In this document: positions 4,285 to 44,628 of the stretch, one piece after another
Layout of the letters: every line of letters begins with the position of its first letter
How positions within the stretch are numbered: position 1 is the first letter of the stretch
Assembly: GCA_004376375.1 (NCBI GenBank)
Contig: SOJX01000087.1
Span: 81,238-145,237, forward strand
Direction: 5' to 3'
DNA length: 64,000 nucleotides
Source: Planctomycetota bacterium
GTDB taxonomy: Bacteria; Planctomycetota; E44-bin39
Translations under genes and position numbers: made by a program
The notes under the pieces: model-generated
What the model was told of the DNA's origin: nothing
Seen by the model: only the letters and a program-made list of their open reading frames with translations
Databases searched by the model: none

Positions 4285-4307
4285 GGGATTCCCTCCTTAG
4301 AAGCAGT

Positions 4308-5592: not shown

Positions 5593-5600
5593 ATGACCTC

Positions 5601-9318: not shown

Positions 9319-9327
9319 TACGATTTC

Positions 9328-10086
9328 TCAGCCTGTGTATGCTTCGATAACTTTAGCATCATTCCTGACTTCACCAGGCGTGCCTTCACAAATCTTGGTT
9401 CCCGCATCCATGAAAATAATTCGATCACATATTTGCATAACGACATCTAGGTTATGCTCAATCAGGATAACTGATTTCTTCTTTTGAGGTAGATCACGAA
9501 TAATTCCAAGGATATTATCAATCATTTCAGGTGCTATCCCAGCTACCGGTTCATCAAGTAGCACAAGATCTCCCTTAGCTGCGAGGCAACAGACAAGGCT
9601 TAACAATTTCTGTTGACCATAAGATAGGTTTTCTGCTTGGTCATTTGCTTTCTCTGCAAGGCCAGCCTCGGCCAGAAGTATAAGTGCTTCATTTCGAATG
9701 GCGGCTTCTTGCTTTTTGCTTTGCTTCCATCTAAAGAAAAGGTTTGCTAAGTGCTCTCCCGGTTGGTTCTCGAATGATAATAGGACATTTTCAAGTACAC
9801 TTAATTGCCGAATAAGCCGGAGATCTTGAAATGTCCTGGCGATTCCAGCACGGGCAATTTTATGCGGAGACATCCTGACAATACTCATTCCTTTAAAAGT
9901 AATATTTCCGCGCTCAGGAGTCGTAAATCCGCTAATGATGTTAAGGAGGGTTGTCTTACCTGCCCCGTTGGGACCGATGAGCCCAAGTATTTGGCCCTGT
10001 GAAAGCGAGCATGAAAAATCCGCAAGAGCTCTAATGCCATCAAAGTTTTTTTCGAGTCCTTGGATTATTAGTAATTCTTCACTCAT
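9328..10086 (-). CDS. livG: branched-chain amino acid ABC transporter ATP-binding protein LivG
   Basis: 'GLIGPNGAGKTT', 'LSYGQQKLL', 'LVLLDEPVAG'. 4-nt overlap with livM. Confidence 0.85.
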   Translation of the reverse strand: MSEELLIIQGLEKNFDGIRALADFSCSLSQGQILGLIGPNGAGKTTLLNIISGFTTPERGNITFKGMSIVRMSPHKIARAGIARTFQDLRLIRQLSVLENVLLSFENQPGEHLANLFFRWKQSKKQEAAIRNEALILLAEAGLAEKANDQAENLSYGQQKLLSLVCCLAAKGDLVLLDEPVAGIAPEMIDNILGIIRDLPQKKKSVILIEHNLDVVMQICDRIIFMDAGTKICEGTPGEVRNDAKVIEAYTG

Positions 10087-10970
10087 TTCCTCGCCTCCCT
10101 ATTCTGGAAAGCGTATTTGCCTAAAAATCCACGTGGTCGCCATATCATAAACGTTACTAGAAGTCCGCCATAAAGAATTTGCCGGAGATTTGCCGCAATT
10201 GAATTGGGCAATCCAACAAAACGAAGTATCTCTGGCAATGTAACAAGGACAAGCGCACCGATAACCGGCCCCCAGGTACTTCCCGCTCCTCCAATTATTA
10301 CAATACATATGATAAATATAGATTCCATCACAGTAAAACTGGTCGGATTGATGTAGCTTACATAATAGGCATACAAAGAACCTGCAAGCGCTGCTATGCC
10401 AGCTCCTAATGTAAATATCAGGATTTTAAAAGTTTCTACACTTTTACCTTTGGATTGCGTAAAAATTTCATCCTCTCGAATTGCCTTTAACACTCGTCCA
10501 AATGGCGAATTGCCAATACGGTGTCCTCCCCAAATAATAATGGCACAAATTCCGCCAACAATAAGGAGAAATCCAATACTTGATGTGACTCTCCATCCCA
10601 AAATAACCGGTTGGGGAATTCCCGGAATACCGTCTGGACCTCCTGTGAATCCTACCCAATTGTTTAATATGCTGAAAGTTATGACTTGGAACGCAAATGT
10701 GGCAATGACAAAATAATCACCCTTGATTCGAAGTGTTGAAACTCCAATTAAGATTCCGAAAAACATTGAAAAGATTATTGAGCATAGTACGGTAACCCCA
10801 AAGGCACAGTTTAATTTAATGGCCATGATTGCGGCAACATATGCTCCAATACCGTAAAATGCAGCATGAGCCATTGAAAGCAGGCCTGTATATCCTACAA
10901 CCATGTTTAGGGATACGGACAGAATAATATAGATGCCGATAAGTATTAATAAATGAAATACGTATTCCAT
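10083..10970 (-). CDS. livM: branched-chain amino acid ABC transporter permease LivM
   Basis: Polytopic membrane protein in liv operon order. Confidence 0.75.
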   Translation of the reverse strand: MEYVFHLLILIGIYIILSVSLNMVVGYTGLLSMAHAAFYGIGAYVAAIMAIKLNCAFGVTVLCSIIFSMFFGILIGVSTLRIKGDYFVIATFAFQVITFSILNNWVGFTGGPDGIPGIPQPVILGWRVTSSIGFLLIVGGICAIIIWGGHRIGNSPFGRVLKAIREDEIFTQSKGKSVETFKILIFTLGAGIAALAGSLYAYYVSYINPTSFTVMESIFIICIVIIGGAGSTWGPVIGALVLVTLPEILRFVGLPNSIAANLRQILYGGLLVTFMIWRPRGFLGKYAFQNREARK

Positions 10971-10982
10971 CCAATCCCCAGG

Positions 10983-11861
10983 TTAAATCGTCGCCTTTTT
11001 TGTGTTTTTTCCTAGAATTCCTTGTGGCTTCACAATCAGGAATCCCAGCAGAATACCAAAAGCGATTGCATCCTGCCATTCAGCTCCGAACTTCCATATA
11101 CCAAGTTGCTGTGCTAATCCCAGTAGTAAACCACCAAGAACAATTCCGGAGACATTAGCCAAGCCGCCTATAATGGCTACTACGAGTCCCATCATGAGCG
11201 CTGTCAGCCCCATTGTAGGTGTCATTCCTACATCAAAAGATAATAAAATACCGGCCAAGCCACAAATTGCCGAACCTATCGCGAAAGCCCATATAATTAT
11301 TCTACTGCTTTCGATACCTGAAATTGCAGCAAGTTCTGGATCACTTGATACTGCTCGAATCGCTTTTCCAGTTCTTGTTATTTTTAGAAACAACACCAAC
11401 AAGAGCAATAAAATGATAGTAGTGCAAATGGTAAGTCCCTGGATAAAGGTTATTCTTGCCCCAAATAGATTAAATCCTTCCGTGATTAAATTACTTCTGA
11501 TAATCTTTGTGTCGTCTCCAAATGCTATAGATATAATATTTTGCAATACGATATAAATTCCAAGAGAAACAAGTAGCATTACAAGGGGTGGGGTAGATTT
11601 GGCCCTGAGCGAACGATAAATCGTTAATTCTATTAAGCATCCTAATAGTGCTGATGCAAATATTGCGGTTGGCACGGCAATAAGAAATGGAAAGCTTAAT
11701 TCCATTCGAAGGAAGAATACAAAATATGCTCCTGCTGTGAAAATAACTGCATGTGTAAAATGGAAAAACCGGACAACACGAAATATTATTGTGAAGCTAA
11801 CAGCGATTAGGATATATATGCTTGCCGATATGAAAGCATTCAGGATAAGTTGGGTAAGCAT
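10983..11861 (-). CDS. livH: branched-chain amino acid ABC transporter permease LivH
   Basis: Polytopic membrane permease with LivH-like spacing of hydrophobic segments. Confidence 0.75.
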   Translation of the reverse strand: MLTQLILNAFISASIYILIAVSFTIIFRVVRFFHFTHAVIFTAGAYFVFFLRMELSFPFLIAVPTAIFASALLGCLIELTIYRSLRAKSTPPLVMLLVSLGIYIVLQNIISIAFGDDTKIIRSNLITEGFNLFGARITFIQGLTICTTIILLLLLVLFLKITRTGKAIRAVSSDPELAAISGIESSRIIIWAFAIGSAICGLAGILLSFDVGMTPTMGLTALMMGLVVAIIGGLANVSGIVLGGLLLGLAQQLGIWKFGAEWQDAIAFGILLGFLIVKPQGILGKNTKKATI

Positions 11862-13450
11862 ATTCGCCCCGGTCGTGAGGTTTCGTCTTTATTTGGCTTA
11901 ATTGTATGGTTATTCCAATGACCAATTACTCGGTAAAGCGGATGTAAAAAGCGAGGAACTGTTTCCCACAGCGCTTCCTGGCATTCAGCCTCAAGCTCTC
12001 CAACTTCTTCCGATGAAAGCACATTCTCCCTCCCAGGCAAATAGGGTACTGACATTGACCAGCCTGAAGCCTTATTGGGAACTGGTGTAACGCCGGGGAC
12101 TTTAGTTCCTCGATCTAATCGAAAAGCAACTAAATCAGCAGTGTCAACTAGTGGTTCGTGTTCGATAAGAAATTCTACAGTGTTCTCAGCATCTTTACGT
12201 GAAGTCCCTGGATAACCAACCATACAGAAAAGGTGTACCATAATTCCGGCATCATAGCAGGCTTTAAGAATACGTAGGGGATTTCCATTATCGCATTTAC
12301 CTAATAAGTTACGATTTGCGCTCGGTGCCTGCTCCAGCCCGAAATAGAGCTTCCGTAACCCACAAGAATGTAATTCTTCAAGAAACGATAACTTTTCCCA
12401 GTTTGGTTCCAGGCGTGCATATGCCTCCCATTCAATGTCCAGATGTGACTTGCTCAGCGATTTGCATAAACTGTCTGCTTTACTAGGCATAAGTGCTTCA
12501 TCAACGAATTTGATCCTTTGTATGGAAGTATCTCTGACAATTTGTGTAAGTTGAGATACTACAAATTCAGCAGGAGCAGAACCTCCATAGCCATTTGGGG
12601 ACCATCCGGCAGGTATTGCGCAAAAATGACACTTGCCCCAATAACAACCTCGCGTGGAGGCATATGGAATAACAGGTATGCCAATATATTTATTGAAATC
12701 TATTCCATCAAATGATGGGATGGGCCAGTTTTCATAAGGGATTAATTCATCACCACTTTCGTTAGATAAAACTGAGCGAGCTTTTTTCACACCAAACTTA
12801 TTCACAGCATTTACAGCTTTGGCAAAAGCCATTTCACCTTGAAAAGATACTATTTGGTCAACTAACCCGGATATGGTGGAAAAAGCTAATGAGTTTCTTA
12901 TACGAGTAACAACGTTACCTCCAAGCAATAAAATGCAGCCTGGTAAGCATTCCCGCACTTTTGTTAGAAGCTCAATTGCTGGAATAATCTGTTGCTCAGA
13001 TGCGATTGTAACCCCAATTATTGATGGTGCCACATCAACCAGTTGCGGGAGAACAATTTCATCAAACATATCTGAAAATACTGTTCCATTTTCCAAGGCA
13101 CGCACAATCTCGTTGGGAGGCAATGAATAGTAATCAGAGAAGCAATATCCTGATAATAAGCGGAATTCGGAATTATTACCCAAAGAACTTCCAACATTTT
13201 TTAACTCATCTTCCCATTTGAAGTATAACTCGTCTAGAGCTTCATAATTATTTTGCGATGAAGCTTCGATGATTCTATCGTTCTTTGGAGGCGATGAATA
13301 CGTCTGGTAGAACAATTGATTTAAATCCCAAGCCTCAACCGGGCAGCTTATGCTGCTTACAGATCCTGCTAGCAAAGGTAAAGCAAGATGAGGCCCAGGA
13401 GTGCAAAAACTCCAATTAGGAGGAAATAGTAGTATCGCCTTATTACGCAT
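11840..13450 (-). CDS. B12-binding-domain radical SAM / Fe-S oxidoreductase family protein
   Basis: N-terminal 'AILLFPPNW' B12-rSAM-like start. Cys cluster 'ASTRGCYWGKCHFCAIP'. Embedded between livK and livH, with a 22-nt overlap on livH. Confidence 0.55.
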   Translation of the reverse strand: MRNKAILLFPPNWSFCTPGPHLALPLLAGSVSSISCPVEAWDLNQLFYQTYSSPPKNDRIIEASSQNNYEALDELYFKWEDELKNVGSSLGNNSEFRLLSGYCFSDYYSLPPNEIVRALENGTVFSDMFDEIVLPQLVDVAPSIIGVTIASEQQIIPAIELLTKVRECLPGCILLLGGNVVTRIRNSLAFSTISGLVDQIVSFQGEMAFAKAVNAVNKFGVKKARSVLSNESGDELIPYENWPIPSFDGIDFNKYIGIPVIPYASTRGCYWGKCHFCAIPAGWSPNGYGGSAPAEFVVSQLTQIVRDTSIQRIKFVDEALMPSKADSLCKSLSKSHLDIEWEAYARLEPNWEKLSFLEELHSCGLRKLYFGLEQAPSANRNLLGKCDNGNPLRILKACYDAGIMVHLFCMVGYPGTSRKDAENTVEFLIEHEPLVDTADLVAFRLDRGTKVPGVTPVPNKASGWSMSVPYLPGRENVLSSEEVGELEAECQEALWETVPRFLHPLYRVIGHWNNHTIKPNKDETSRPGRICLPNLS

Positions 13451-13451
13451 A

Positions 13452-14744
13452 TTATTCTTCTCTACATATACAAAAATCCGGTTTCCCAGTCGTCCAAGCT
13501 TCTTTCACAAGAGGAAGTAGGCCAGGAGGATCCCCTTCTTCTTTAAGTTCATATTCCGGCAGAAAACGCATGCCGTTAACATCACGGCTTTCGTCATCAA
13601 TAAAAACCATGCCAAATCCAGATGTTTCTGAAAGCCTTACAATGAAAATATCATCGTAGTGGCGCAATCTTTCTGGTAGAGAATCAAGGTAGCGGATAAA
13701 AACACCGCCGTCTCCAGGGCTTGGGTCTTCAGAATGATCATGAAATGATTCATGAAAATGATCAATAAGTCGAGTGCCCTGTGTTTTATCCATGTCCTCG
13801 TCTGCATATTTACCAATTAAATAGATATGCGGTTGAAGTTCTTTGGGCAAAGATTGATAATTAAATGTAGAATTAATTATATGGTGTATATCAGGGTGCC
13901 ATTCAATATAATCGTATTGCTCCGCTAGCTCTTTAGCCTTTGGTATTGTTAAGGCATTAGTATCAAATAAAAAATAATCTTTGGCATCCTCAATAGTGGT
14001 TTGAGATAAAATATGAGCAACCAAGCGATAAAGCTTTATTGGTTCTTCCGCCCCCTTCATTTCTCTAATGGTGCTCTTGTAATTTTCCCACCATGGAAAA
14101 GTAATGTTACCTGAATAGGTATTTCCATTATCAATCCAATCCACAGGGAATGGTATGTACCAGTTCCAGATGGGCCTTTTTAGAATAGTCCAGACTTGGG
14201 GGTAAGGCTTCTCGCAATTAAGCTCTCTTATCAAATCTAAAACCGATGAGACCGAATGCGCATATCCCTGAAAATTACAAAATATCACCGGGAATTCTTT
14301 TCTTCCTTGTTCACAATGTAATTCAATTACGTTTTTATCCATTAAGCCCTGGATTGCAGCGGCTGTTAATTTGTTCCATTGCCATCGATTAGGGCTAAAA
14401 AATTTTCCTGGGCGTGCCACTTTTATGGCGCGGTTTAGATGATTAGAAAACTCATGTTGTCCCTCATGACGCGCCGTACGTACTTTTGGATGCAAAGGCA
14501 GTCGCTGAAGTAGCTGAGCTAATATCCATAGAACGAGATATACAGCCAATGCCGATATAAATAAAAAAAAGACCGCTCCCACAAGGGTTTTTAAATCCAA
14601 CAACTTTCCCCAAAAACCAACACCCAAGTCGCGGTACTCTTTAAACTCATCATAAAAAAATACGATAGCGCCCATTACAGTAATAAAACCGCTCACAATT
14701 TGTATGCGGTATGCCTTGATAAAATCTTTGAAATTTTTGCCCAT
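13452..14744 (-). CDS. hypothetical membrane-anchored protein (two N-terminal TM helices)
   Basis: Long intact ORF, tightly packed 2 nt from the rSAM gene. No motif recognised. Confidence 0.4.
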   Translation of the reverse strand: MGKNFKDFIKAYRIQIVSGFITVMGAIVFFYDEFKEYRDLGVGFWGKLLDLKTLVGAVFFLFISALAVYLVLWILAQLLQRLPLHPKVRTARHEGQHEFSNHLNRAIKVARPGKFFSPNRWQWNKLTAAAIQGLMDKNVIELHCEQGRKEFPVIFCNFQGYAHSVSSVLDLIRELNCEKPYPQVWTILKRPIWNWYIPFPVDWIDNGNTYSGNITFPWWENYKSTIREMKGAEEPIKLYRLVAHILSQTTIEDAKDYFLFDTNALTIPKAKELAEQYDYIEWHPDIHHIINSTFNYQSLPKELQPHIYLIGKYADEDMDKTQGTRLIDHFHESFHDHSEDPSPGDGGVFIRYLDSLPERLRHYDDIFIVRLSETSGFGMVFIDDESRDVNGMRFLPEYELKEEGDPPGLLPLVKEAWTTGKPDFCICREE

Positions 14745-14996
14745 TAATTATACCTGAAGGCTATTCAACTCAGTAATGCAAACTTAGAGTTCACGAGCCG
14801 CCTCAGGACGGCGCTTTGTCTTTTGGAATGGGCCAGTTGGTTTTATTCTGGCGAGGATATTTCCATTATGGTTAGAAGCTATATCATTGCTCTCGGGCGC
14901 CTTAATTTCCAAATGGTGCTTTTTTGATATGTTAGAACGTGCTCGCAAGAGTGCCGACCGCTTGGTCATTCAAGTTCTCCTGATTATGTTATGGTC

Positions 14997-16145
14997 CTAC
15001 TTCTTTTCCTGAAGAGGAGTAAATTCCCCGTTTTTGACGCGGTATATTGTAAAAGGTTTTTGCACATCGCCAAAGCTATCGAATTCCGTTATACCTGTTG
15101 GGCCTTCGTATTTCAGTTTCAAAAGAGCTTTTTGGATGCTTGGCCCATCTTTTTTTGATGCAGCAGACAGGGCCTTAGCGAGGACATGTGTGGCATCATA
15201 AAAGAGTCCGGAGTAAACTCCAGGTTCTTCGCCATATTTCTTCTTGTATGCTTCTTTAAATTTCGCAACTGCTGGATTTGAGGATTCATCACCCCATCCA
15301 ATTGTTACCCAATATGATCCTTCCGCAGCATTTCCTGCAATCTTAAATAATTGAGGATCAAATCCGCCATCAGTTCCCATAATTACGCTGGAAATACCTA
15401 ATTCTTTTGATTGACGAAGCAATGTACCCCCTTCGGCGTAATGAACAGCTGCAAATATGAAGTCAGGAGCCGAGGCTTTTACCTTTGCTAATTGCGCTCT
15501 AATGTCCTTTGCGTCGGGAGCTACACCTTCCATACCGACAATCGATCCGCCAAGTTCCTTAAAGGCCTTTTCAAATTTATCACGCAGTGTAACTCCGTAA
15601 TCAACATTTCTGTATAAAATATAAGATGTCTTGAGGCCTAATTTTTTATACGCAAAATTAGCTATCGTCCTTGCCTGTTCGTCATTACTTGGACAAACTC
15701 GGAATACATATTCACCAGCGTTTCTAATATTATCACTGGTTGCAGTTCCTGTTAATAATACGACTTTTAACTTTTCAGCTGTGGGCGCGCATGCAAGAAC
15801 ATTCGAGGAATAAAATGGGCCGAGAATTGCGGGAACTTTGTCTATTGAAGCAAGTTTCTTAAACGCCGATAGTGCATCTTTGGGATTGCCTTTATCATCT
15901 TCATATGTAACCGTGAGTTTTTTGCCATCAATCCCGCCTTCAGCATTAATTTCTTCCAAGGCAAGATCAATTGCAGTTCGAGCCGCTTTTCCATAATTGG
16001 CTCCATCACCTGAAAAAGGAGATATTGCGCCGATTGTAATAGTTGTTTTTGATGTAGATAGAGTATTTATAATAAGAACGATAACAATAATGATAACTGC
16101 AACACCGCCGATAATTAGCCAGGTTAAGCGTCCTTTACTATTCAT
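14997..16145 (-). CDS. livK: branched-chain amino acid ABC transporter substrate-binding protein (LivK/LivJ family, type-1 periplasmic binding protein fold)
   Basis: Signal/TM 'LTWLIIGGVAVIIIVIVLI' followed by a periplasmic-binding-protein type-1-like sequence. Start placed at 'MNSKGRL'. Confidence 0.75.
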   Translation of the reverse strand: MNSKGRLTWLIIGGVAVIIIVIVLIINTLSTSKTTITIGAISPFSGDGANYGKAARTAIDLALEEINAEGGIDGKKLTVTYEDDKGNPKDALSAFKKLASIDKVPAILGPFYSSNVLACAPTAEKLKVVLLTGTATSDNIRNAGEYVFRVCPSNDEQARTIANFAYKKLGLKTSYILYRNVDYGVTLRDKFEKAFKELGGSIVGMEGVAPDAKDIRAQLAKVKASAPDFIFAAVHYAEGGTLLRQSKELGISSVIMGTDGGFDPQLFKIAGNAAEGSYWVTIGWGDESSNPAVAKFKEAYKKKYGEEPGVYSGLFYDATHVLAKALSAASKKDGPSIQKALLKLKYEGPTGITEFDSFGDVQKPFTIYRVKNGEFTPLQEKK

Positions 16146-17199
16146 ATCACATCTCCTTCCGCAAAGGAACTTTTCGTCTGTGCTGGTAGATATTTTCTTT
16201 GGATGAAGTGAAATATGGTGAGAAATCACCCATATTTCTCTCCATACTATTCTGGATAAAAGCCTCTACCACAAGCAAAGTTGGGCTAACCCCAAGCCAT
16301 ACAAAATTATATAAAATATGATATAAAGATGGTATGACCTTGTCAACTTATTTTCGGATAAGAAATTATACCCATTCAAGGTATTAACCATGGATTCTGG
16401 TTGGATTCCTTTTTGCACTAAACGCACAGAGGTCAAAGGCGAAAATTGCACGATATTGTTAATGAGAAAAGTTGAAAACCCGTGCATGAAACGCGAATCG
16501 TTCAATAAAGAACGTTGGCATCAAACGAGTTAGCATGCGTTATTCAATAGGGAAAGGTTTTGACGGGGTATATTCAAAAAGAAAAGTGCTTCTGAGTGGA
16601 GGCATTGACAGGCAATAAAACCGGGAATTTACGCTAACTCTATGCGCACCTTGGCTTCCAGCGTTCTAGCTTGACAACGATTTCGACGGGTGCTATATTT
16701 CCTTTTGATTGTGGCGAGTCGCCCCGACCCGATTGGACGGACAGCCCTTCGGCAAGAATGTCGAAGGGCTTTCTGTATTCAGGAACTACACTTACGCCAT
16801 CGAAGGTTAAGTTCAAACAGGTTGTTTGGAGTAACTGGCGTTTTTTGTGCGGATTAAACGTAACGAACCTTTCTGGAAGCGTTTGCGAAAGTTCAAACGC
16901 TTTCAGGCCTGTGTTGATGTGCTTGGCAAAATTCTTCTCGTGGGATTGCATACTGGCGGCACCTCTGCGAATGCTGAAACACCTGTCTTGGCGGGCTCAA
17001 TGAGAGCAGAACGCCACGCTGGAAGCGTGTCTACTACTTAAAGGGTAGTTTATGTCCAACAATTTTAGGGAACTCTGCTACGAGGGGGTTTTTTGCTTTG
17101 GACCGCGACCACGGAGAGTTTTATTCTCTTCTGAGGGGTCGACATAGCCGCCTTTATTCTGGGACTTCCCTGAAGGTTGCTGAAATGTATAATGAAAAG

Positions 17200-23914: not shown

Positions 23915-23945
23915 ATAAAAGGCCGCATGCGGCCTTTTTATTTTG
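23915..23945. terminator. rho-independent-type hairpin (GGCCGCATGCGGCC) flanked by A/T runs on both sides
   Basis: 'aaaataaaaGGCCGCATGCGGCCtttttatttt', a bidirectional terminator shape. Confidence 0.4.
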
Positions 23946-23947
23946 GT

Positions 23948-24030
23948 AGAGCAGGAGAACAGTAGAGAGGAGAAAGTAGAGCAAAGAAAAAGACATTAAA
24001 AGGAGAACGGTATCCGAATCGGCAATAAAC
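23948..24030 (+). repeat. approximately 82-bp direct repeat, copy 1 (upstream of the GH130/GT4 cluster)
   Basis: Near-identical to 31009..31090 ('agagcaggagaacagtagagaggagaaagtagagcaaagaaaaagacattaaaaggagaacggtatccgaatcggcaataa'). Confidence 0.65.
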
Positions 24031-24162
24031 CACATCCGGATTCATATTTTTTCCACGATCTTTCTGCCGCTTTCTGAAACCTTTTCAATACGGAAACTCC
24101 TTTGAATAGAAAGGCATTCATTGAATTATATCTTTGACCCGGTTCCCGAGTAGTGATATCTT

Positions 24163-25152
24163 GTGTCAAGTGTATACAGTATGCGAAAGGACGTCCAGGG
24201 ACAAGTGTCTGCAATGAAAAACAGCAATCGAGAGCTTTTTACGCGGCATCCGGGCAACCCGATTATTACGGCAAAGGACATTCCCTATCCCGCCAACACG
24301 ATCTTCAACGCGGCCGCCGCGAGACTTGAAGGCGAGACTCTGCTTCTTCTGCGTATTGAGGACAGGCGGGGCTTTTCCCACCTCACTGCCGCGAGGAGCG
24401 CAGGCGGCGTTACCGACTGGAACATCGACAAGAAGCCGACTCTTCTCGGCGACGGGAACAAATACCCCGAGGAGGCCTGGGGTATCGAGGATGCCCGCAT
24501 CACCTTCATCGAAGACCTCGGCAAATGGGCCGTCGCCTACACGGCTTACTCGGACCTCGCACCGCTGGTGTCGCTCGCGTTGACAGAGGACTTCAAAAAG
24601 TTCGAGCGCATGGGCCCCGTGCTCCCGCCGGAGAACAAAGACGCCGCGCTCTTTGGAGCGAAGTTTGATGGGCGCTACACCATGCTGCACCGGCCCGTTC
24701 CGGCGGGGCCCGGTGTGGGCGCGCACATCTGGATTTCGTTCTCGCCGGACCTCAGGCACTGGGGCGACCATCGTGTCCTGCTCCGGGCGCGCCAGGGCGG
24801 CTGGTGGGACGCGAACAAGATCGGCCTCTCGACGCCACCCTTGAAGACTGACGAGGGCTGGCTCCTGCTTTATCATGGTGTGCGCGAAACCGCGAGCGGC
24901 TGCATCTACCGGCTGGGCCTTGCTCTTCTCGATCTTGATGACCCGACCAGGGTCGTCTGCCGCTCGGACGAATGGGTCTTCGGGCCCGAGACGTTGTATG
25001 AGAGGGTCGGAGACGTGGGTAACGTCGTCTTCCCATGCGGGTGGACGCTGGAAGGCGACCAACTGCGCATCTACTACGGCGGAGCTGACAGCTGCCTGGC
25101 GCTTGCGACAGGGAGCCTCGCCGAGATCCTCGATTGGCTGAAAAATAAGTGA
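24163..25152 (+). CDS. GH130-family glycosidase / glycoside phosphorylase-like (DUF377 beta-propeller)
   Basis: 'HPGNPIITAKDIPYPANTIFNAAA...' and typical GH130 blocks. The true start may be 'MKNSN' at about 24214. Confidence 0.65.
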   Translation: MSSVYSMRKDVQGQVSAMKNSNRELFTRHPGNPIITAKDIPYPANTIFNAAAARLEGETLLLLRIEDRRGFSHLTAARSAGGVTDWNIDKKPTLLGDGNKYPEEAWGIEDARITFIEDLGKWAVAYTAYSDLAPLVSLALTEDFKKFERMGPVLPPENKDAALFGAKFDGRYTMLHRPVPAGPGVGAHIWISFSPDLRHWGDHRVLLRARQGGWWDANKIGLSTPPLKTDEGWLLLYHGVRETASGCIYRLGLALLDLDDPTRVVCRSDEWVFGPETLYERVGDVGNVVFPCGWTLEGDQLRIYYGGADSCLALATGSLAEILDWLKNK

Positions 25153-25209
25153 ATCAGTAAATCAGTAATAACTGAATAACTGGATAACTGAATAACTGGA
25201 TAACTGAAT

Positions 25210-26238
25210 ATGCGAGTTGCTATGCTTTCACCCGTTGCATGGAGGACGCCGCCGCGCCACTACGGCCCGTGGGAGCGCTTCGTTTCGCTCTTAACGGAGG
25301 CCCTCGTGGAAAAGGGCGTGGACGTGACCTTGTTTGCAACCGCCGACTCGAAAACCCGTGCCAGGCTCCACGCCGTCTGCGAGCGGGGCTACGAGGAAGA
25401 CAAGTCCATCGACCCCAAGGTGTGGGAGTGCCTTCACATCTCGGAGGTTTTCGAGCGCGCAGGCGACTTCGACCTGATTCACAACAGCTTCGACTTCCTG
25501 CCGCTCACCTACTCCGGCCTCGTAAGCATTCCGGTACTGACGACGATCCACGGTTTCTCGTCGCCGAAGATTCTGCCCGTGTACAGGAAGTACAACGGCA
25601 AGGTCTTTTATGTCTCAATCAGCGACGCTGACCGTTCGCATGAGCTGGATTACATTGCCACCATCCACCACGGCATCGACCTTGAAAACTTCACTTTTCG
25701 GCCGGAGGGCGGTGACTACCTGCTTTTCTTCGGACGTATCCACAACGACAAAGGCGCCCGTGAGGCGATAGAAATCGCAAAGCGCGCCGGCCGAAAGCTC
25801 GTCATTGCCGGTGTGATTCAGGACCAGGAGTATTTCGAGCAATGGATAAAACCACACATCGACGGCGAGCGGATTTCCTACGTCGGCAGCGCAGGCCCCG
25901 AGCTGCGCGACGAGCTGCTGGGCGATGCGTATGCGTTGCTGCATCCAATCAATTTCGATGAGCCTTTCGGGTTCTCGGTCGTGGAATCGATGGCCTGCGG
26001 CACGCCGGTAATTGCCATGAACCGCGGCAGCATGCCGGAGCTGATTGAAAACGGCGTAAATGGCCTCCTCGTTTCCAGCGTGGAAGAGGCCGTGGACGCC
26101 GTAGAGAAAGTGGAAAAGATCGACCGCGCCCACTGCCGCAAGGTGGTGGAGGAGCGCTTTACCGCCGAAAACATGGCAGACCAATATATCAAGGTCTACG
26201 AACGTGTAATCAAGGAAGCCGGGGCTTCCCATGAATGA
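25210..26238 (+). CDS. glycosyltransferase family 4 (GT4)
   Basis: 'LLFFGRIHNDKG...EPFGFSVVESMACGTPVIA' GT4 E-x7-E region. Confidence 0.7.
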   Translation: MRVAMLSPVAWRTPPRHYGPWERFVSLLTEALVEKGVDVTLFATADSKTRARLHAVCERGYEEDKSIDPKVWECLHISEVFERAGDFDLIHNSFDFLPLTYSGLVSIPVLTTIHGFSSPKILPVYRKYNGKVFYVSISDADRSHELDYIATIHHGIDLENFTFRPEGGDYLLFFGRIHNDKGAREAIEIAKRAGRKLVIAGVIQDQEYFEQWIKPHIDGERISYVGSAGPELRDELLGDAYALLHPINFDEPFGFSVVESMACGTPVIAMNRGSMPELIENGVNGLLVSSVEEAVDAVEKVEKIDRAHCRKVVEERFTAENMADQYIKVYERVIKEAGASHE

Positions 26239-27166
26239 GCCGGTCGTCAAACGCTACGAGAAAAACCCGATACTCACGAAGCGCGACGTTCCCTACCCGG
26301 TGGAGACCGTGCACAACGCCGGCGTGGTCAAGCACGAGGGGCGGTACATAATGCTCTTTCGCTCGCACTTGCGAAACGGCCGCTCGATTATCGGCATGGC
26401 GGAAAGCGACGACGGCTTTTCCTTCAAGGTCCGCCCTGAGCCGTTCCTCGTGCCCTTCGGCGAGGGCGACTTCGCCCTGTACGAGGAGTACGGGGTGGAA
26501 GACGTCCGCATCTGCCCGCTCGAGGGCGAGTATCTACTCACCTTCAGCGCGTACTCCCGGCACGGCGTGCGGGTGGCGCTTGCAAAAACAAAAGACTTCG
26601 AGTCCGTCGAGCGAATCGCGCTCATCACACAGGCGGACCTGAGAAACGTCGCTATCTTCCCCGGGAAATTTGATGGCCGCTACGCCCGGCTCGACAGACC
26701 GCATTCGGAGATATCCCCGTGGTCGATCTGGATTACCTACTCGCCGGACCTCGTCCACTGGGGCGATTCGAAAGTGGTAATGAAGCCCGTGCAATACCAC
26801 TGGGACGAGATGAAAATCGGCCCCGGCGCAACCCCGATAAAAACCGACCGCGGATGGCTGCACATCTACCACGGAGTCTTTTCCACCATGAGCGGGTCGG
26901 TCTATCGCCTCGGAGTGGCGCTTCACGACCTTGAAGACCCGTCAAAGGTGCTCGGCGTCTCGGATGAATGGATACTTCAGCCCGAGGACCCGTGGGAGAT
27001 CACGGGTTACGTGCCCAACGTGGTTTTCTGCTGCGGCGCGGTGCCGGAGAACGACGGGACGCTGAAAATATACTGGGGAGGAGCGGACACGGTCATGTGC
27101 GTTGGCACGGCGCAAATCGACGACCTTATCAAGATGTGTCTTGACCGGCCGCGGCAACCCATGTAA
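26231..27166 (+). CDS. GH130-family glycosidase / glycoside phosphorylase-like, paralog
   Basis: 'YEKNPILTKRDVPYPVETVHNAGVV'. Paralogous to 24163..25152. 8-nt overlap with the upstream GT4. Confidence 0.65.
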   Translation: MNEPVVKRYEKNPILTKRDVPYPVETVHNAGVVKHEGRYIMLFRSHLRNGRSIIGMAESDDGFSFKVRPEPFLVPFGEGDFALYEEYGVEDVRICPLEGEYLLTFSAYSRHGVRVALAKTKDFESVERIALITQADLRNVAIFPGKFDGRYARLDRPHSEISPWSIWITYSPDLVHWGDSKVVMKPVQYHWDEMKIGPGATPIKTDRGWLHIYHGVFSTMSGSVYRLGVALHDLEDPSKVLGVSDEWILQPEDPWEITGYVPNVVFCCGAVPENDGTLKIYWGGADTVMCVGTAQIDDLIKMCLDRPRQPM

Positions 27167-27358
27167 TATAAAGAAGTTTCGAGTACCGAGTGCCGAGTTT
27201 CGAGTAAAGAAAATAAAAAGAAGTTTCGAGGTTCGAGTAAAGAAATGATTAGGGGATTTTTCACTCGATACTCGGTACTTCTTATTGAGATTGCTTCGCT
27301 TTGCTCGCAATGACAAAAATAGCGTTGCCGTGCTGGTACACCTGGGAGAACTGATGAC

Positions 27359-28576
27359 ATGCGCCCAATTGTGATGATTTCAAGCTGGCCGCCGCGCCTT
27401 TGCGGCATCGCAACGTTCGCCGAGGAGGCACTGGAGTTTATCTGCAAGGCTGATCCCGCGCGCCCGGCCTATGTCATTTCTCACACCGACGGCGAGGGCG
27501 AGTTCGTCAAGCCTGTCATCGACATGAGCCGCGAGGACTGGTACGTCCCGGTCGTCGAAACAGTTAAAGAACTCGACCCCGAGGTCATCCACATCGAGCA
27601 CGAGTACGGCCTTTACAACTACATAAACGACAAGGGCGAAGGCGACGGGAACCGCGGGTTCCTCAAGATGCTCGACCTGCTCAGCGGCTACCCGACAGTT
27701 GTCGAGCCGCATACCATCCACGGCAGGATGAGGGACCAGGAAGAGATTTTCGTCAAGGAACTCGCCGAGAAGTGCTCCGTCCTCCTTTTCAAGTGCCACT
27801 ACCAGAAGTGGCGTCTGCGCTGGAGTTTCGAGGGCCGGGACTGGAAGGTTCCGGAAAACATCATGATTATCCCTCACGGCGCGCGGCCGGACTTCCGCTG
27901 GGCAATTAGCGAAGTCGACAATCTCAAGCGCGAACTCGGGCTCGGTGAGTACGCCGGGAAGCACATCATCGGCCTCGTCGGATGGATACAGTCGAACAAG
28001 CGCTGGGATATCCTCACGAGCATGTGGGAGGACATCTACCACGAGATACGGGAGGAGACGGGGGAGGAATGGTTCCTGTTCGCCGCCGGCTCGATGCGCG
28101 ACCCGAACCACAAGTCAGACTATGAGAAGTACGTAAGCGAGATCAAGCTCCTTGAGTCCGAGGGCATGGCCAGGTACTTCGAGTTCGTGCCCCGCGGAGA
28201 GCTTTACTACAAAGCAATGGCCGTCTGCGACTTCATCGTCCTGCCGAGCCTGGACGAGACCCAGTCCGGGACGCTTGCGAGGATTATCGCCCTCAATAAG
28301 CCGTACATCTCCACTGCTCCGATGGAGGGCCTTACCGCTCAAACCGTGGAGAGCGAAGGCGGGCTCCTCTTCACCCACAAAGCGGGGCTGAGGGAAAAGG
28401 TCATCAGGCTCGCAACTGACGAAGGGTTGCGCATGCGTTTGGGCGAAAACCTGAAAAAGTATCTTGATGAGACGGTCAGTTGGGAAGTGGTTGCAAGGCA
28501 ATACCTCGAGGCGTACCAACTGGCGAGCCGCGAGGTCCGTGAAGGCAAGCCGGTCTACATCCGCCCGGAGTTCTAA
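27359..28576 (+). CDS. glycosyltransferase (GT4-like, divergent)
   Basis: 'ISSWPPRLCGIATFAEE' N-terminus shared with the next gene ('LPRLCGIATFTTDL'). GT-B-like C-terminal half. Confidence 0.55.
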   Translation: MRPIVMISSWPPRLCGIATFAEEALEFICKADPARPAYVISHTDGEGEFVKPVIDMSREDWYVPVVETVKELDPEVIHIEHEYGLYNYINDKGEGDGNRGFLKMLDLLSGYPTVVEPHTIHGRMRDQEEIFVKELAEKCSVLLFKCHYQKWRLRWSFEGRDWKVPENIMIIPHGARPDFRWAISEVDNLKRELGLGEYAGKHIIGLVGWIQSNKRWDILTSMWEDIYHEIREETGEEWFLFAAGSMRDPNHKSDYEKYVSEIKLLESEGMARYFEFVPRGELYYKAMAVCDFIVLPSLDETQSGTLARIIALNKPYISTAPMEGLTAQTVESEGGLLFTHKAGLREKVIRLATDEGLRMRLGENLKKYLDETVSWEVVARQYLEAYQLASREVREGKPVYIRPEF

Positions 28577-28696
28577 CGCGTCGAGGGTCGAGCGTCAAGC
28601 GTCGAGCGTCAAAAATAAGTGATAAGAGATAAGAAAATTATTTATATCCTTATCACCTATTAACCTATCACTTATCACGATTTTTTTGGACGATTT

Positions 28697-30979
28697 ATGC
28701 CGGATAAAAAGAAAAAGTATGAGCTCAATTCCGTTGCTGTGATAGGCAACTACCTGCCGCGGCTGTGCGGCATCGCCACTTTTACAACCGACCTCTGCAA
28801 CGCGCTGAGCGAGAAGCTCGGGGACCAGGGTGATGTCCTTGCACTCGCAATGGATGATATCCCCGGCGGATATTCCTACCCCGAGCGCGTCAAGTTCGAG
28901 CTCCGCGCGAACGTCCAATCCGACTACCTCCGCGCCGCGGACTTTATCAACGTCTACCAGTTTGATGTCGTAATCCTTCAGCACGAGTTCGGCATCTTCG
29001 GCGGTAAGCAGGGCGCCCACATTCTCCACCTCCTGAAACACCTCAGGATGCCGATTCTGACGACGCTTCACACGGTGCTTACGGAGCCGTCGGACGAACA
29101 GCGCGTGATTATTCACGAGTTGGCAAAATATTCCGAACGGTTCGTCGTCATGAGCAACAAGGCCCACGACATCCTGCTTGATACGTTTGCGGTACCCGAG
29201 TCGCAGATCCAGCTCATCCCGCACGGCATCCCGGACGTCGCCTTCGTCGACCCGAGCTTCCACAAGGACCAGTTCGGCGTGGAGGACCGCAAGGTCATCC
29301 TTTCCTTCGGCCTCCTCAGCCCCGGCAAGGGCATCGAACACATGATCGACGCGATGCCTGAGATTCTGGCAAAGCACCCAGATGCGGTCTACATTATACT
29401 CGGCGCCACCCACCCTCACGTTAAGATGGCGACCGGCGACGCTTACCGCCACGGTCTCCTGCAGAGAGTAAGCAAGCTTGGCCTCGAGGACCACGTGCTT
29501 TTCCACAACCACTTTGTCAGCCTCGAGGTGCTCGTCCAGTACATCGGTGCAGCGGATATCTACGTTACACCATATATCTCACCGGCGCAGGTAACATCCG
29601 GAACGCTGGCCTACGCTATCGGCTCGGGGAAGGCGGTTGTATCAACACCATACTGGTATGCCGAAGAACTTCTGGCTGAAGAGCGCGGTCGGTTGGTGCC
29701 CTTTGGCGATCCAGGCGCCATGGCCCGGGAGATAAGCGAACTGCTCGAAAACGACCTTGAACGCAACGCCATGCGCAAGCGGGCTTACCAGTCCACCCGG
29801 CCGATGGTGTGGAAGGAAGTGGCGCGACAGTACCTCGAACTTGCGGTCAGCGCCCTCGAGCGCTGCGTCAGTTCGCCGAAACCCGCGCACGGCGAGGCCA
29901 GGACCCCGAAGATTCTCGACGAGCTGCCGGAAGTTAACCTTGCACACCTCCGATCCCTCACCGACGACACCGGCATCCTCCAGCACGCCAACTACTCCAC
30001 GCCCAACCGCTACCACGGTTACTGTGTAGACGACAACGCCCGGGCCCTTATCGCAACCAGTATGTACTACTCCATGCGCAAGGACGAGAGCGTCATTCCA
30101 CTCATCCACAAGTACCTCGCGTTCCTCTTCCATGCATTTAACCTCAAGACCGAGAGGTTCCGCAACTTCATGTCATACGAGCGGACCTGGCTCGAAGAAA
30201 TTGGAAGCGAGGACTCGCATGCCCGCGCCATCTGGAGCCTTGGTGTCGGGGTGAAGCACGCGCCGAATGACGCCATCCGCGATATGGCGACCCGGCTTTT
30301 CCTCGAGGGGCTCCGCAAGGTCGAGCCCTTCTCATCTCCGCGGGCATGGGCCTTCATTCTGGTCGGCTTACACGCATACCTCGACGTATACGGCGGCGAT
30401 GCCACCGTCCGTCGGCTGCGCAGCGTCCTGGCCGAAAAGCTGCATAAGGCCTTCATCAGGAACGCGGATAATGACTGGCCCTGGTGCGAGGAGACCGTGA
30501 CTTACGCCAATGCGAAGCTGCCCCATGCACTTATCCTCTCCGGCCAGTGGATTCCGGACGCAAAGATGCATGAGACCGGCCTCAAGCTCCTCGAATGGCT
30601 TCTTGAACAACAGACCGTGCCGGACGGCCATCTCTCGGTCATTGGAAACTCGGGCTGGTTTACCCGCGGCGGTATCCGATCCAATTTCGACCAGCAGCCC
30701 ATTGATATCATGGCGCTCGTGGAGGCGTGCACTGAGGCCTTCCGCTCCACCGGCGATAGGAAGTGGCTCGGGGAGTCGCGGCGGGGCCTGGCATGGTTCC
30801 TCGGCAGAAACGATCTCCATGCCGTGATTTATGACTTCAAGACCGGAGGCTGCCGCGACGGCCTGCAACCCCACGGCCCAAATGCCAACCAGGGTGCGGA
30901 GTCTACTCTTGCCTGGCTTATCTCCCTTCTGACCATGTTTGAAATTCTGGGGCAGGAAGTGCTGGTGGTCAAGGGATAA
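28697..30979 (+). CDS. GT4 glycosyltransferase fused to a C-terminal (alpha/alpha)6-barrel glycoside-hydrolase-like domain
   Basis: N-terminal GT4 ('FGLLSPGKGIE...VSTPYWYAEE'). The C-terminal 350 aa ('YCVDDNARALIA...') resemble GH63/debranching-enzyme-like barrels. Confidence 0.55.
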   Translation: MPDKKKKYELNSVAVIGNYLPRLCGIATFTTDLCNALSEKLGDQGDVLALAMDDIPGGYSYPERVKFELRANVQSDYLRAADFINVYQFDVVILQHEFGIFGGKQGAHILHLLKHLRMPILTTLHTVLTEPSDEQRVIIHELAKYSERFVVMSNKAHDILLDTFAVPESQIQLIPHGIPDVAFVDPSFHKDQFGVEDRKVILSFGLLSPGKGIEHMIDAMPEILAKHPDAVYIILGATHPHVKMATGDAYRHGLLQRVSKLGLEDHVLFHNHFVSLEVLVQYIGAADIYVTPYISPAQVTSGTLAYAIGSGKAVVSTPYWYAEELLAEERGRLVPFGDPGAMAREISELLENDLERNAMRKRAYQSTRPMVWKEVARQYLELAVSALERCVSSPKPAHGEARTPKILDELPEVNLAHLRSLTDDTGILQHANYSTPNRYHGYCVDDNARALIATSMYYSMRKDESVIPLIHKYLAFLFHAFNLKTERFRNFMSYERTWLEEIGSEDSHARAIWSLGVGVKHAPNDAIRDMATRLFLEGLRKVEPFSSPRAWAFILVGLHAYLDVYGGDATVRRLRSVLAEKLHKAFIRNADNDWPWCEETVTYANAKLPHALILSGQWIPDAKMHETGLKLLEWLLEQQTVPDGHLSVIGNSGWFTRGGIRSNFDQQPIDIMALVEACTEAFRSTGDRKWLGESRRGLAWFLGRNDLHAVIYDFKTGGCRDGLQPHGPNANQGAESTLAWLISLLTMFEILGQEVLVVKG

Positions 30980-31008
30980 AATCCCCGCCTGCGGTATTTT
31001 ATTTGGGC

Positions 31009-31090
31009 AGAGCAGGAGAACAGTAGAGAGGAGAAAGTAGAGCAAAGAAAAAGACATTAAAAGGAGAACGGTATCCGAATCGGCAATAAC
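31009..31090 (+). repeat. approximately 82-bp direct repeat, copy 2, extended into a long imperfect palindrome (to about 31140) downstream of the GT cluster
   Basis: Same sequence as 23948..24030. Followed by 'ccgttctcctgcggtctcctttctactctctactttc', which folds back on the repeat. Confidence 0.65.
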
Positions 31091-31226
31091 CCGTTCTCCT
31101 GCGGTCTCCTTTCTACTCTCTACTTTCAGAACTTGCGGCGCCGGACGGCGCCCCAAGTTTTTTTAATTCCTGCCCCTCCCCGACGCGACTGATTCAGGAA
31201 ACGAGTCAGGCCCCGGGGCCTGGGGA

Positions 31227-35211: not shown

Positions 35212-35225
35212 TAACAGAATATGCA

Positions 35226-35261
35226 GGGGCACAAAACACGCGCGCGCTGTGCCCCTACAAT
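35226..35261. repeat. REP-like palindromic element (GGGGCA...TGCCCCTACAAT family), short copy
   Basis: 'ggggcacaaaacacgcgcgcgctgtgcccctacaat' shares the 'TGCCCCTACAAT' core with copies at 40201, 50199 and 50428. Confidence 0.45.
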
Positions 35262-40201: not shown

Positions 40202-40286
40202 CGGCCGCGCTTGCGCGGCGTTGTAGGGGCAAGGCACGCGCCTGTTCTTTGCCCCCTACATATCAACGCGCCGCAAGCGGCGCCGC
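40201..40286. repeat. approximately 86-bp near-perfect palindrome (REP-like, GCCCCTACA family) exactly filling the gap between convergent genes
   Basis: Left arm 'gcggccgcgcttgcgcggcgttgtaggggcaa'. Right arm 'ttgccccctacatatcaacgcgccgcaagcggcgccgc'. Confidence 0.55.
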
Positions 40287-40289
40287 TAA

Positions 40290-44149: not shown

Positions 44150-44306
44150 TCAGGATGCCTTCAGCACAGCAGACAAGCGACGGCATTATGCCACCGTACG
44201 CGTTGAATTTCAACACCATTTTTTTGAGTCGAAAGTCAAACGTCACAAGGGATAAACGTGTATTCATTATGACCTGAGACCCGTGACATGTGATATGAAC
44301 CGGGAT

Positions 44307-44343
44307 ATAAAAAACAACGCCGCGGAATTAACCGCGGCGTTCT
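44307..44343 (-). terminator. candidate rho-independent terminator (minus strand): stem aacgccgcgg/ccgcggcgtt followed by a T-run
   Basis: Minus-strand read is 'aacgccgcggttaattccgcggcgttgtttttt'. Confidence 0.3.
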
Positions 44344-44628
44344 GCACCTCAGCCGGTGCGGGGAAGGGAGGGTATATGAAATCGGCAATGCGAAAAATCT
44401 TTGCATTGCCGATTATTGTTAATCCGACCTGTCGGTGTGGCGCTGGCGGTATGGTCAGCGTTTCGCGCGCCTGACAACTTACGGAAAAGGCCGCGCGATA
44501 TTGCCGCACTGCGGGGAACGGAAGGGAGGGAAACACGCCGGGCCGCAGGTCGGTTGATTTTAGACCTGCCGTCGGACACAGGAGGAAAGTCCGAAGCGCC
44601 GCAATGTCCTCCACTTTTTAAAATACAA
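44344..44628 (+). ncRNA. candidate structured noncoding RNA of unknown class (approximately 285 nt) ending in a terminator-like hairpin
   Basis: No credible ORF. Several strong internal hairpins ('atcggcaatgcgaaaaatctttgcattgccgat', 'ccgcaggtcggttgattttagacctgccg'). 3' 'ggaggaaagtccgaagcgccgcaatgtcctcc' followed by 'acttttttaaaa'. Confidence 0.15.

Follow-up and report, generated by a model that had tools for sequence, protein, structure and literature searches.

Tandem heptanucleotide and octanucleotide arrays in the intergenic DNA of a Planctomycetota bacterium, many of them folding back on inverted copies at gene ends

The intergenic DNA of an uncultured Planctomycetota bacterium, represented by a metagenome-assembled genome (GTDB lineage Bacteria; Planctomycetota; E44-bin39) carries tandem arrays of 7–8-nt units, many of which fold back on an inverted copy directly past a stop codon. 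The arrays are described here in a window of 64,000 nucleotides (assembly GCA_004376375.1, contig SOJX01000087.1, positions 81,238 to 145,237 of the forward strand). They are a further example of a repeat class described, and left unexplained, in Xanthomonas, cyanobacteria and giant sulfur bacteria. The explanation that we favor, and consider rather probable, is that they are heptanucleotide and octanucleotide repeats of the short tandemly repeated repetitive (STRR) type, made by slippage, and that about half of them act as stem-loops at gene ends or between cistrons. To our knowledge, both the origin of heptamer repeats (“why seven?”) and their function are still unexplained after 35 years. 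The present locus extends the fold-back variant of these repeats to Planctomycetota, and the follow-up comparison extends it to Terriglobales (Acidobacteriota).

Excess of Arrays and Confinement to Non-Coding DNA

Arrays were scanned for as at least 3 units with at least 85% self-identity, with Tandem Repeats Finder (TRF) run alongside. Coverage comprised the window and the 9.6 kb past its right end, towards dnaA (73.6 kb in all; the latter locus is called L068 below). TRF and the scan give 8–11 period-7 arrays of 3–10 units. The window holds 11 arrays of period 7 and two of period 8, against 0.2 and 0.0 in dinucleotide shuffles. When each spacer was shuffled separately, the 8.7 kb of intergenic DNA held eight period-7 arrays against 0.02, and one period-8 array against 0. 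Periods 5, 6, 9 and 10 yielded zero arrays in the same intergenic DNA, as did the same scan over the 55 kb of coding DNA of the window. Unrelated bacterial loci amounting to 1.03 Mb contain eight arrays, or 0.5 per 64 kb, while the window contains eight after merging, a roughly 16-fold difference. The excess is large, specific to periods 7–8 and strictly non-coding.

Every array listed in a preliminary description of this DNA was found in its place. The same description named, as one finding that would refute it, arrays no more frequent than composition predicts; in the window the shuffles contradict this (0.02–0.2 period-7 arrays against 8–11). Its claim that nearly every intergenic spacer of the GC-rich part carries an array was too broad: arrays occur in 9 of the 23 spacers of at least 40 nt between 17 and 64 kb, and in 0 of 8 spacers of the low-GC island at 1–17 kb. 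An intergenic family of 7–8-mers does exist, as had been proposed, but the extent seen is the window and the adjoining 9.6 kb instead of the genome.

Judged by the definition of heptanucleotide long simple-sequence repeats, the arrays show tandem units, an excess, specificity of unit size, non-coding confinement and recurring families. Several of them score better in TRF at period 14 or 16 than at 7 or 8, which fits the expectation if two-unit blocks duplicate. Zero Rfam families fall on any array at gathering threshold or at E ≤ 1; the sole matches on any array are to microRNA models, far below threshold, on the hairpin at 52446–52559.

Fold-Back Stems and Their Position Relative to Genes

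The claim that many arrays fold back on inverted copies holds. RNA folding of the spacers gave clear stems at six places, with z from −3.1 to −7.0: 27167–27300 (z −3.2, −38.2 kcal/mol), 28577–28696 (z −3.1), 30995–31140 (z −4.2, −47.3 kcal/mol), 45110–45250 (z −5.6, −40.7 kcal/mol), 45540–45665 (z −5.5) and 52420–52566 (z −7.0, −52.0 kcal/mol). The fold at 25140–25215 is weak (z −3.8, −11.3 kcal/mol). Counted by cluster, about 7 of 11 pair with an inverted copy (z −3 to −7). The window has six clear inverted array pairs, to which the adjoining 9.6 kb adds two. Folding of the arrays at 63705–63850 (z +1.1 and +2.3), 50295–50440 (z −1.15, not significant) and 23930–24040 (z +0.55) found no fold-back partner.

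About half of the arrays take the form of a direct array plus its inverted counterpart, placed right after a stop codon. Hairpin arrays of the window start 0–30 nt past stop codons, namely 9 nt at 27175, 2 nt at 28578, 30 nt at 31009 and 6–7 nt at 52560 (minus strand), and several of them occupy the entire spacer up to the next start codon. Over all loci fetched, 18 of 31 array hairpins have the stop of an open reading frame (ORF) within −25 to +30 nt reading into them, versus 7.2 ± 2.3 at random placement. Arrays without an inverted partner sit in divergent or 5′ regions (23946, 63719 and 63801).

Assembly Support and Nearest Relatives

Contigs from separate assemblies reproduce the arrays base for base, and these are therefore not assembly artefacts, a possibility that had been raised earlier. 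A second contig of the Joint Genome Institute (JGI) is 99.995–100% identical to window positions 42567–64000, arrays included; the only difference is a single-nucleotide polymorphism at 50259, outside any array. A Logan contig (run SRR7716471) matches 59750–63792 at 100% identity and stops about 10 nt short of the GAGTCCT array.

Copy numbers are identical in the assemblies compared, and it is scarcely credible that the arrays are phase-variation (contingency) tracts that switch neighboring genes by changing copy number, as the preliminary description had also suggested. Tandem repeats are potentially prone to slippage, and three of the arrays belong to an operon for glycosyltransferases, whose function is typical of phase-variable genes. 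However, units of 7–8 nt that lie outside coding DNA have no reading frame to shift, and most arrays lie 3′ of genes, beside nadB, hflX and, past the window, transketolase and sodC (nadB, hflX and transketolase being housekeeping neighbors). The same conclusion was drawn for Xanthomonas (PMC4692102).

For the NadB protein of the window, a 100% identical metagenome protein of JGI is encoded on contigs of 346 kb and 120 kb, the latter being the second contig compared above; the next relatives stand at 75% and then at ≤57%, and a scan of a genome collection with NadB returned no relative above 51% identity. In 41 kb of the closest available relative (JGI sample 3300041085, 70–75% protein identity), the search for heptad arrays of three or more units found none. 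The nadB–hflX spacer measures 32 nt in the 75%-identical relative versus 167 nt here. Synteny with the 70%-identical relative breaks after dnaA–BFN (a BFN-domain gene), so that the comparison with it ends before the transketolase, sodC and murJ spacers. Because both the relative and the low-GC island are without arrays, the arrays look like a product of the lineage’s own biology.

The island itself (1–17000, 40–47% GC), probably an integrated element, is without heptad arrays. Its genes include those for a large serine recombinase (5601–7175), a DUF3800 protein, parts of a branched-chain amino-acid ABC transporter and a radical SAM protein. At the other side, dnaA lies at L068:1–206, about 9.4 kb past window position 64000, so the window is probably near the chromosomal replication origin.

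The Same Architecture in Terriglobales

A metagenome scan was carried out with (RAGTAYC)x3, and counts of loci refer to the matches listed. Only 5 of the 80 RAGTAYC x3 loci among these matches have an exact inverted partner within 500 nt, all at 52–73% GC, which indicates that fold-back belongs to some lineages and not to the unit. Heptad-rich matches among those listed carry 16 arrays in 6.6 kb (L093) and 17 in 11.7 kb (L139). Four array hairpins, all of them in contact with a stop codon, lie within 8.9 kb of locus L130 (62% GC): AGTACCR at 477–562, AAGTACC at 4375–4480, ATCGGGNC 8-mers at 6485–6559 and GTAATTGG 8-mers at 7194–7294. Its methylmalonyl-CoA mutase led to a placement in Terriglobales and to a graded series of relatives (L190 and L193–L196).

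At the end of the HhH-GPD gene, the arms are identical in L130 and L190 (96% identity). The homologous hairpin of L194 (89%) has changed its units and yet pairs (GGGTAATTG/CAATTACCC became GAGAAATTG/CAATTTCTC), L195 (95%) has a different unit (GATTTGTG/CACAAATC), and in L196 (86%) a plain hairpin of 13 bp overlaps the stop codon. The end of the OEP gene carries about four AGTACC units in L130 and about five in L195, both of which fold (z −5.5 and −7.1), a degenerate version in L190 (z −0.4) and a canonical GC stem with a T-run in L193. At the end of the mutase gene, the 8-mer hairpin of L130 stands in place of 22 nt present in L190, while L195 has GC palindromes and L196 has GCAGATT heptads. 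Both copy number and units differ between relatives at 95–96% protein identity, and L190 is without two of the four hairpins of L130 (lost or never had). Turnover in Terriglobales is rapid, copy number changes, and array hairpins are exchanged for ordinary hairpins or terminators at the same sites.

One arm pair is conserved against this background. Four-fold degenerate sites of L130 and L190 differ at 24% in the mutase and 37% in the HhH-GPD gene, whereas the HhH-GPD hairpin shows 0 differences in 79 arm bases, with about 6 of 24 loop positions differing. The same gene end with an array hairpin, a plain hairpin or a terminator in different relatives, together with this conserved arm pair, leads us to hypothesize stem-loops that change their strength in unit steps.

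The Acidobacteriota contigs also contain a dispersed element of about 30–120 nt (…GCAGGTYCTTCGCTRCGCTCAGRATGACAA… / GTCATCCTTCGCGAGGCGAAGC…GAAGAATGACA), often inside or beside array hairpins. It was seen at L093:275–310, 360–400, 700–720 and 3495–3530, at L190:8800–8990, and at L195:8760–9270, where it is tandemly duplicated.

Proposed Origin and Role

We propose that short units grow by replication slippage, in line with the preference for 7 nt known from bacteria, and that arms may now and then be copied to other loci. Inverted arms would arise or stay matched either by template switching, which could build or repair them, or by selection. Such an array-forming process would be lineage-specific and tolerated only outside coding DNA. 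A polycistronic or terminal transcript would then carry an imperfect stem-loop of roughly 25–45 bp. Such a structure could stop 3′ exonucleases, cause transcription to pause or end, or undergo processing as long double-stranded RNA, in the manner of repetitive extragenic palindromic (REP) sequences and bacterial interspersed mosaic elements (BIMEs), and copy number would set the length of the stem. Partner-less arrays in 5′ or divergent regions, e.g., the TAACTG array at 25167–25210, may be by-products or binding sites. Among the three roles suggested by the preliminary description, that of mRNA stabilisers or terminators is the best fit, given where the hairpins start relative to stop codons and the plain hairpins or terminators found at the same gene ends in Terriglobales.

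The terminator half of that role does not extend to canonical Rho-independent terminators (a short stem rich in GC, a loop of 3–8 nt and a U-tract), which the array hairpins do not resemble: their stems are long, AT-rich, generally without a T-run, and missed by a terminator scan of 23–33 kb. The scan (23–33 kb) found canonical, GC-rich terminators at 23917–23938 and 31137–31152. Read by eye, the A-rich and T-rich flanks of the array hairpins are roughly symmetrical, and a terminator-like hairpin lies at 60700–60730.

Several observations weigh against stem-loops made by slippage. The random-placement control includes coding DNA, and the stop-codon signal is therefore in part mere intergenic location. 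The sense RNA folds better than the antisense in 9 of 14 cases, which is not significant, and an RNA-level role is thus not separable from a DNA-level one. None of the array hairpins was picked up by the terminator scan in the 23–33 kb that it covered; their stems of about 25–45 bp are AT-rich, and a clear T-run (T7) is found only at 28681–28687. As copy numbers do not differ between the assemblies, we infer slippage from array structure and from the Terriglobales comparison. The relative without the nadB–hflX hairpin indicates that at least this hairpin is dispensable. The strongest evidence of constraint comes from Acidobacteriota and not from this organism, and the stem-loop function is deduced from position and conservation.

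Several of these points would also suit a neutral or selfish by-product, with slippage and quasi-palindrome template switching in unconstrained DNA producing hairpins without a role that expand up to the coding sequence. We regard this as a serious rival, possible though somewhat unlikely. It would account for the lineage-specific presence and rapid turnover (no arrays in the 70–75% relative, two of four hairpins lacking in L190), for unequal arms such as 4 versus 10 units at 52442–52560, for arrays that fill whole spacers and for a folding energy without strand bias. It does not predict 79 unchanged arm bases beside 24–37% synonymous divergence and a diverging loop, although recent gene conversion could mimic this pattern. 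The ordinary hairpins and terminators of relatives at the same sites also suggest a need for a stem-loop.

A more far-reaching version of gene-end stem-loops made by slippage, which we put forward as speculative and rather unlikely, is that array hairpins are a distinct and evolvable design present in several phyla. Slippage steps would tune expression, and a lineage-specific factor would lie behind the patchy occurrence. If so, the design would span Planctomycetota, Acidobacteriota, Xanthomonas and perhaps cyanobacteria. Steps of 7–8 nt would alter the stem and thereby tune mRNA 3′-end stability, read-through or RNase III processing, forming a heritable dial within operons. The contrast between lineages with hundreds of arrays and close relatives with none would come down to a variant polymerase or repair function, or to a protein that binds the units.

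Unit Families and Possible Protein Binding

At least 12 different unit families occur in the 74 kb, and some of them recur at distant loci. RAGTACC is found at five loci, among them 27182, 50313, 52442 and L068:7996, GTCRAGC at three loci (28578, L068:6124/6162 and L068:7891) and CGATTTT at two (45636 and L068:7946). A 19-nt identical string is common to 28578–28613 and L068:6124–6148, 9 kb past the window. Strings of 12 nt or more are common to seven pairs of arrays from different loci. Under a null in which each array was re-keyed with a random unit, 0.65 such pairs are expected, and 200 trials gave at most 4. Sharing of consensus units is not significant (14 pairs within 1 mismatch versus 9.2 expected). 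The AGT-centred core noted earlier is present, on a reading of the units by eye, in roughly half of the families and missing from the remainder. A common feature was also sought in palindromic tetranucleotide cores (GTAC, TCGA, AGCT, AATT) and dropped, as they occur in about 6 of 14 families by count, close to a rough chance of about 36%.

A small vocabulary of units recurring at unrelated loci is what multivalent binding sites for a sequence-specific DNA- or RNA-binding protein (a regulator, or a nucleoid, ribosome-associated or cold-shock-type protein) would produce. A protein-binding role was proposed earlier for the TAACTGA repeats of Beggiatoaceae and for Nostoc heptamers, and in Nostoc heptamer repeats upstream of genes affect reporter expression (bioRxiv 10.1101/2022.06.06.494920). 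Here, conservation between L130 and L190 is at the level of sequence, beyond pairing. A TAACTGR array stops 2 nt short of an ATG that, on a reading by eye, lacks an obvious Shine-Dalgarno sequence, a position like that in PMC4679880, and partner-less arrays lie in divergent promoter regions adjoining a helix-turn-helix (HTH) gene. However, the families are too many for one protein, both orientations occur in hairpins, orthologous sites swap units for unrelated units or plain hairpins, and no candidate protein has been identified. As a general explanation, protein binding is in our view quite unlikely; the role of protein-binding arrays offered by the preliminary description is possible mainly for the partner-less arrays in divergent 5′ regions.

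Relation to Known Repeats

On the reading that we favor, the arrays resemble STRR and belong with the heptanucleotide simple-sequence repeats, among which the inverted GGGAATC pairs known from Xanthomonas come nearest to them. The two genomes described, of Xanthomonas campestris and X. axonopodis, hold 186 and 183 GGGAATC arrays, with 70–75 cases per genome of two nearby arrays in convergent orientation, capable of forming a stem-loop; the arrays lie on average 28 nt from the upstream ORF versus 160 nt from the downstream ORF, are transcribed, vary between close species and have no explained function (Rehm et al. 2015, PMC4692102). Both there and here, tandem heptamers (typically about four units in Xanthomonas) are intergenic, mostly in convergent pairs, nearer to the end of the upstream ORF and beside genes of all functions. 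The differences are that Xanthomonas has one G-rich, G-quadruplex-capable unit, whereas the families here are at least 12, not G-rich and without G-runs (AAGTACC, GTCGAGC, AAAGTTT, ATAAGNG, etc.); that 8-mer arrays also occur here; and that the phylum is Planctomycetota, with parallels in Acidobacteriota. Since neither the units here nor those in Terriglobales can form G-quadruplexes, pairing appears to be the shared property.

According to the summary given in PMC4679880 of a survey of 5–11-nt repeats by Mrazek et al. (2007), heptamers are the commonest long simple-sequence repeats in bacteria, and slippage is offered there and in PMC4692102, in brief, as an explanation of this bias. The description of such hairpins as uncommon is thus to be qualified, as the architecture is known in Xanthomonas and heptamers are common on that summary. 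A literature search, incomplete in its coverage, found no report of such arrays in Planctomycetota or Acidobacteriota.

With STRR and other long simple-sequence repeats, the arrays share several heptamer families per genome, many intergenic loci for each, a sporadic and lineage-specific distribution and a preference for 7 nt. The STRR heptanucleotides of heterocystous cyanobacteria were reportedly described by Mazel et al. in 1990. Cyanobacterial STRR arrays are chiefly known as direct arrays, and fold-back at gene 3′ ends is not known to define them. The TGGTTAT/TGGTCAT units at 45283–45322 resemble TTGGTCA, which we take to be the cyanobacterial STRR2 unit. Since STRR are defined by cyanobacterial sequence families, membership of the present arrays is limited to being of the same kind.

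TAACTGA direct repeats occur in marine Beggiatoaceae, some cyanobacteria and Bacteroidetes (MacGregor 2015, PMC4679880). The array at 25167–25210 is like them in sequence and in stopping 2 nt short of a start codon, where these repeats typically sit in the BOGUAY genome (PMC4679880). It differs in its period of 8 (ATAACTGA/ATAACTGG), so that its heptamers are not tandem and exact, and in being the single such array in 74 kb, one family among many. REP and BIME elements form stem-loops at gene ends or between cistrons and are thought to affect mRNA stability and termination (PMC3733652). They are 20–40-nt copies of one palindromic consensus, whereas here the units are tandem and the arms, loops and counts differ at each locus. 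No REP-associated tyrosine transposase (RAYT, IS200/IS605-like) was found among the 20 window proteins scanned against Pfam.

Arrays Around the GH130/Glycosyltransferase Operon

Three successive spacers of the GH130/glycosyltransferase operon (24163–30979) carry arrays. The first is a period-8 array on the plus strand at 25143–25210, with three copies of AATCAGTA followed by ATAACTGR x5.5 (25167–25210) and CAGU/ACUG helices in its weak fold. It fills the spacer from the GH130 stop codon (25150–25152) to 2 nt before the glycosyltransferase ATG (25210), which has no obvious Shine-Dalgarno sequence on a reading by eye. TAACTGA occurs three times in 25167–25210, recurring every 16 nt, and only twice elsewhere in the window.

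The second, at 27175–27285 (plus strand), is an array hairpin starting past the stop of the second GH130 gene. Its 5′ arm reads GAGTACC-GAGTGCC-GAGTTTC-GAGT (GAGTNCC x4 at 27180–27206) and its 3′ arm is ACTCGATACTCGGTACT (27263–27279). The arms are 88% complementary, and the loop, as read by eye, holds a shorter copy of the 5′ arm (27219–27243). The third spacer has two arrays on the plus strand. About five units of GTCGAGC/GTCAAGC at 28578–28612 (GTCRAGC x4.7 at 28578–28610) are without an inverted partner; they are followed at 28613–28687 by a hairpin with the arm ATAAGTG-ATAAGAG-ATAAGAA, a loop and CTTATCA-CCTATTAA-CCTATCA-CTTATCA, i.e., ATAAGNG x3 paired with an inverted array at 28651–28679. 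A T7 run comes after this hairpin, 10 nt short of the ATG that follows (28697).

An 84-nt perfect direct repeat (23948–24031 and 31011–31094) flanks this operon of about 7 kb. The upstream copy lies just past a bidirectional terminator and includes the alternating GTAGAGN/GGAGAAN heptads of 23946–23990 (strand not assigned), for which TRF gives a period of 14–15 and which have no inverted arm. The identical downstream copy is completed by an inverted arm at 31094–31127, which the upstream copy lacks, to form a long hairpin on the plus strand at 31009–31127. This hairpin follows the last stop of the operon, and the canonical GC terminator at 31137–31152 comes next. The 84-nt repeat could stem from a recent duplication, delimit a cassette or act as a regulatory element common to both places.

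Arrays Between 45 and 64 kb and Past the Window

Except for the nadB–hflX hairpin, no strand was assigned to the arrays of this part of the window. Two modules lie in the 1-kb spacer upstream of a gene (45838–48792) for a 984-aa type IIG restriction-modification enzyme with an Eco57I/MmeI-like methylase and an HSDR_N nuclease domain, in a second low-GC island (38–44%, 44300–50000). Module A (45119–45322) comprises an AAAGTTN array (45119–45141), an AAAGTTN hairpin (45166–45247) and a TGGTTNT array (45283–45322). Its paralogue, module B (45552–45659), comprises an AAAGTTN hairpin (45552–45636) and a CGATTTT x3 array (45636–45659). Between the two hairpins, one A-U pair has become U-A by compensatory change and one mismatch has become C-G. 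The whole duplicated composite module is about 210 nt long and spans 45080–45380 and 45500–45740, with a conserved leader (GTTTGTAA..GAAA.TTTT.GGCA.GG) ahead of the AAAGTTN hairpin. The second array varies between the copies (TGGTTNT in one, CGATTTT in the other), whereas a GGCCGAATGACNGAGTGA box is again conserved. The module might encode a small RNA that has escaped annotation, or be a 5′ region that was duplicated.

The duplicated module, the 84-nt repeat in two places, identical strings of 13–19 nt at distant loci and REP-like CCCCTAC palindromes in the same genome bring to mind small mobile palindromic elements, similar to miniature inverted-repeat transposable elements or REP, that insert at gene ends and have the heptads as a feature of their consensus. 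This is nevertheless very improbable: there is no common consensus, as arms, loops and copy numbers differ at every locus; no target-site duplication was seen; the hairpin of L130 replaces 22 nt of L190 and is not a clean insertion; and there is no transposase nearby.

A partner-less GAGTACC-GAGTCGT-GAGTCTC array (GAGTNNN x3, 50313–50335) sits among REP-like palindromes between convergent genes, and about four units of ATAAGGN with mixed periods of 7–8, likewise without a partner, follow at 50393–50423. The largest array hairpin fills the 167-nt nadB–hflX spacer (52408–52560, minus strand). Its sense strand, starting past the nadB stop codon, runs from AAGTACC-like x4 through a loop to GGTACTT-like x10 and CATACTT x4; on the window strand this corresponds to AAGTAYC x10, AAGTATG x4 and inverted TGGTACT x4. 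In a divergent promoter region, a period-8 AACCGANN array of 4.5–6 units (63719–63765), with no inverted partner and no fold, lies 122–168 nt upstream of an XRE-type HTH gene. The same spacer holds GAGTCCT x4.6 (63801–63839), without an inverted partner and adjoining a match to Acido-Lenti-1 RNA. This RNA (Rfam RF01687) is matched at full length at 63879–63924 on the minus strand (59.5 bits versus a gathering threshold of 37), and a second, sub-threshold copy is found at 50139–50172 on the plus strand (23 bits).

Past the right end of the window, L068 holds further arrays of like kind. Nested AGCTNTC/GCTGAAA and AACTTTTG hairpins follow the transketolase gene directly, starting 1 nt after its stop (L068:5301). 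The first arm of a GTCRAGC hairpin is formed by the last 23 nt of sodC, the hairpin starting 22 nt inside the gene end (L068:6126). AATTGNC, GTCGAGC, GATTTTC and CGGTACC arrays follow murJ. A JGI gene call at L068:7687–7983 (98 aa, no Pfam match) and an ORF pick at 50226–50438 lie wholly on spacers filled with arrays or REP-like sequences. Both ORFs are probably spurious, and such repeat-rich spacers probably inflate the gene counts of metagenome-assembled genomes.

A 12-nt repeat, AAAAGCCAAAAA x4.2 at 48890–48939, lies inside a small ORF (48846–49100); its product is probably a repeat rich in lysine and alanine, and it has no relation to the heptad arrays. Finally, REP-like GC-rich palindromes ending in CCCCTAC (reverse complement GTAGGGG) occur at 35222–35257, 40202–40289, 50196–50260 and 50425–50480, paired with GCGCCGC..GCGGCGC palindromes at convergent gene ends. 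Their likeness to the GTAG-tagged REP superfamily (PMC3733652) is a reading by eye only. They form a second, conventional class of gene-end palindromes in the same genome.

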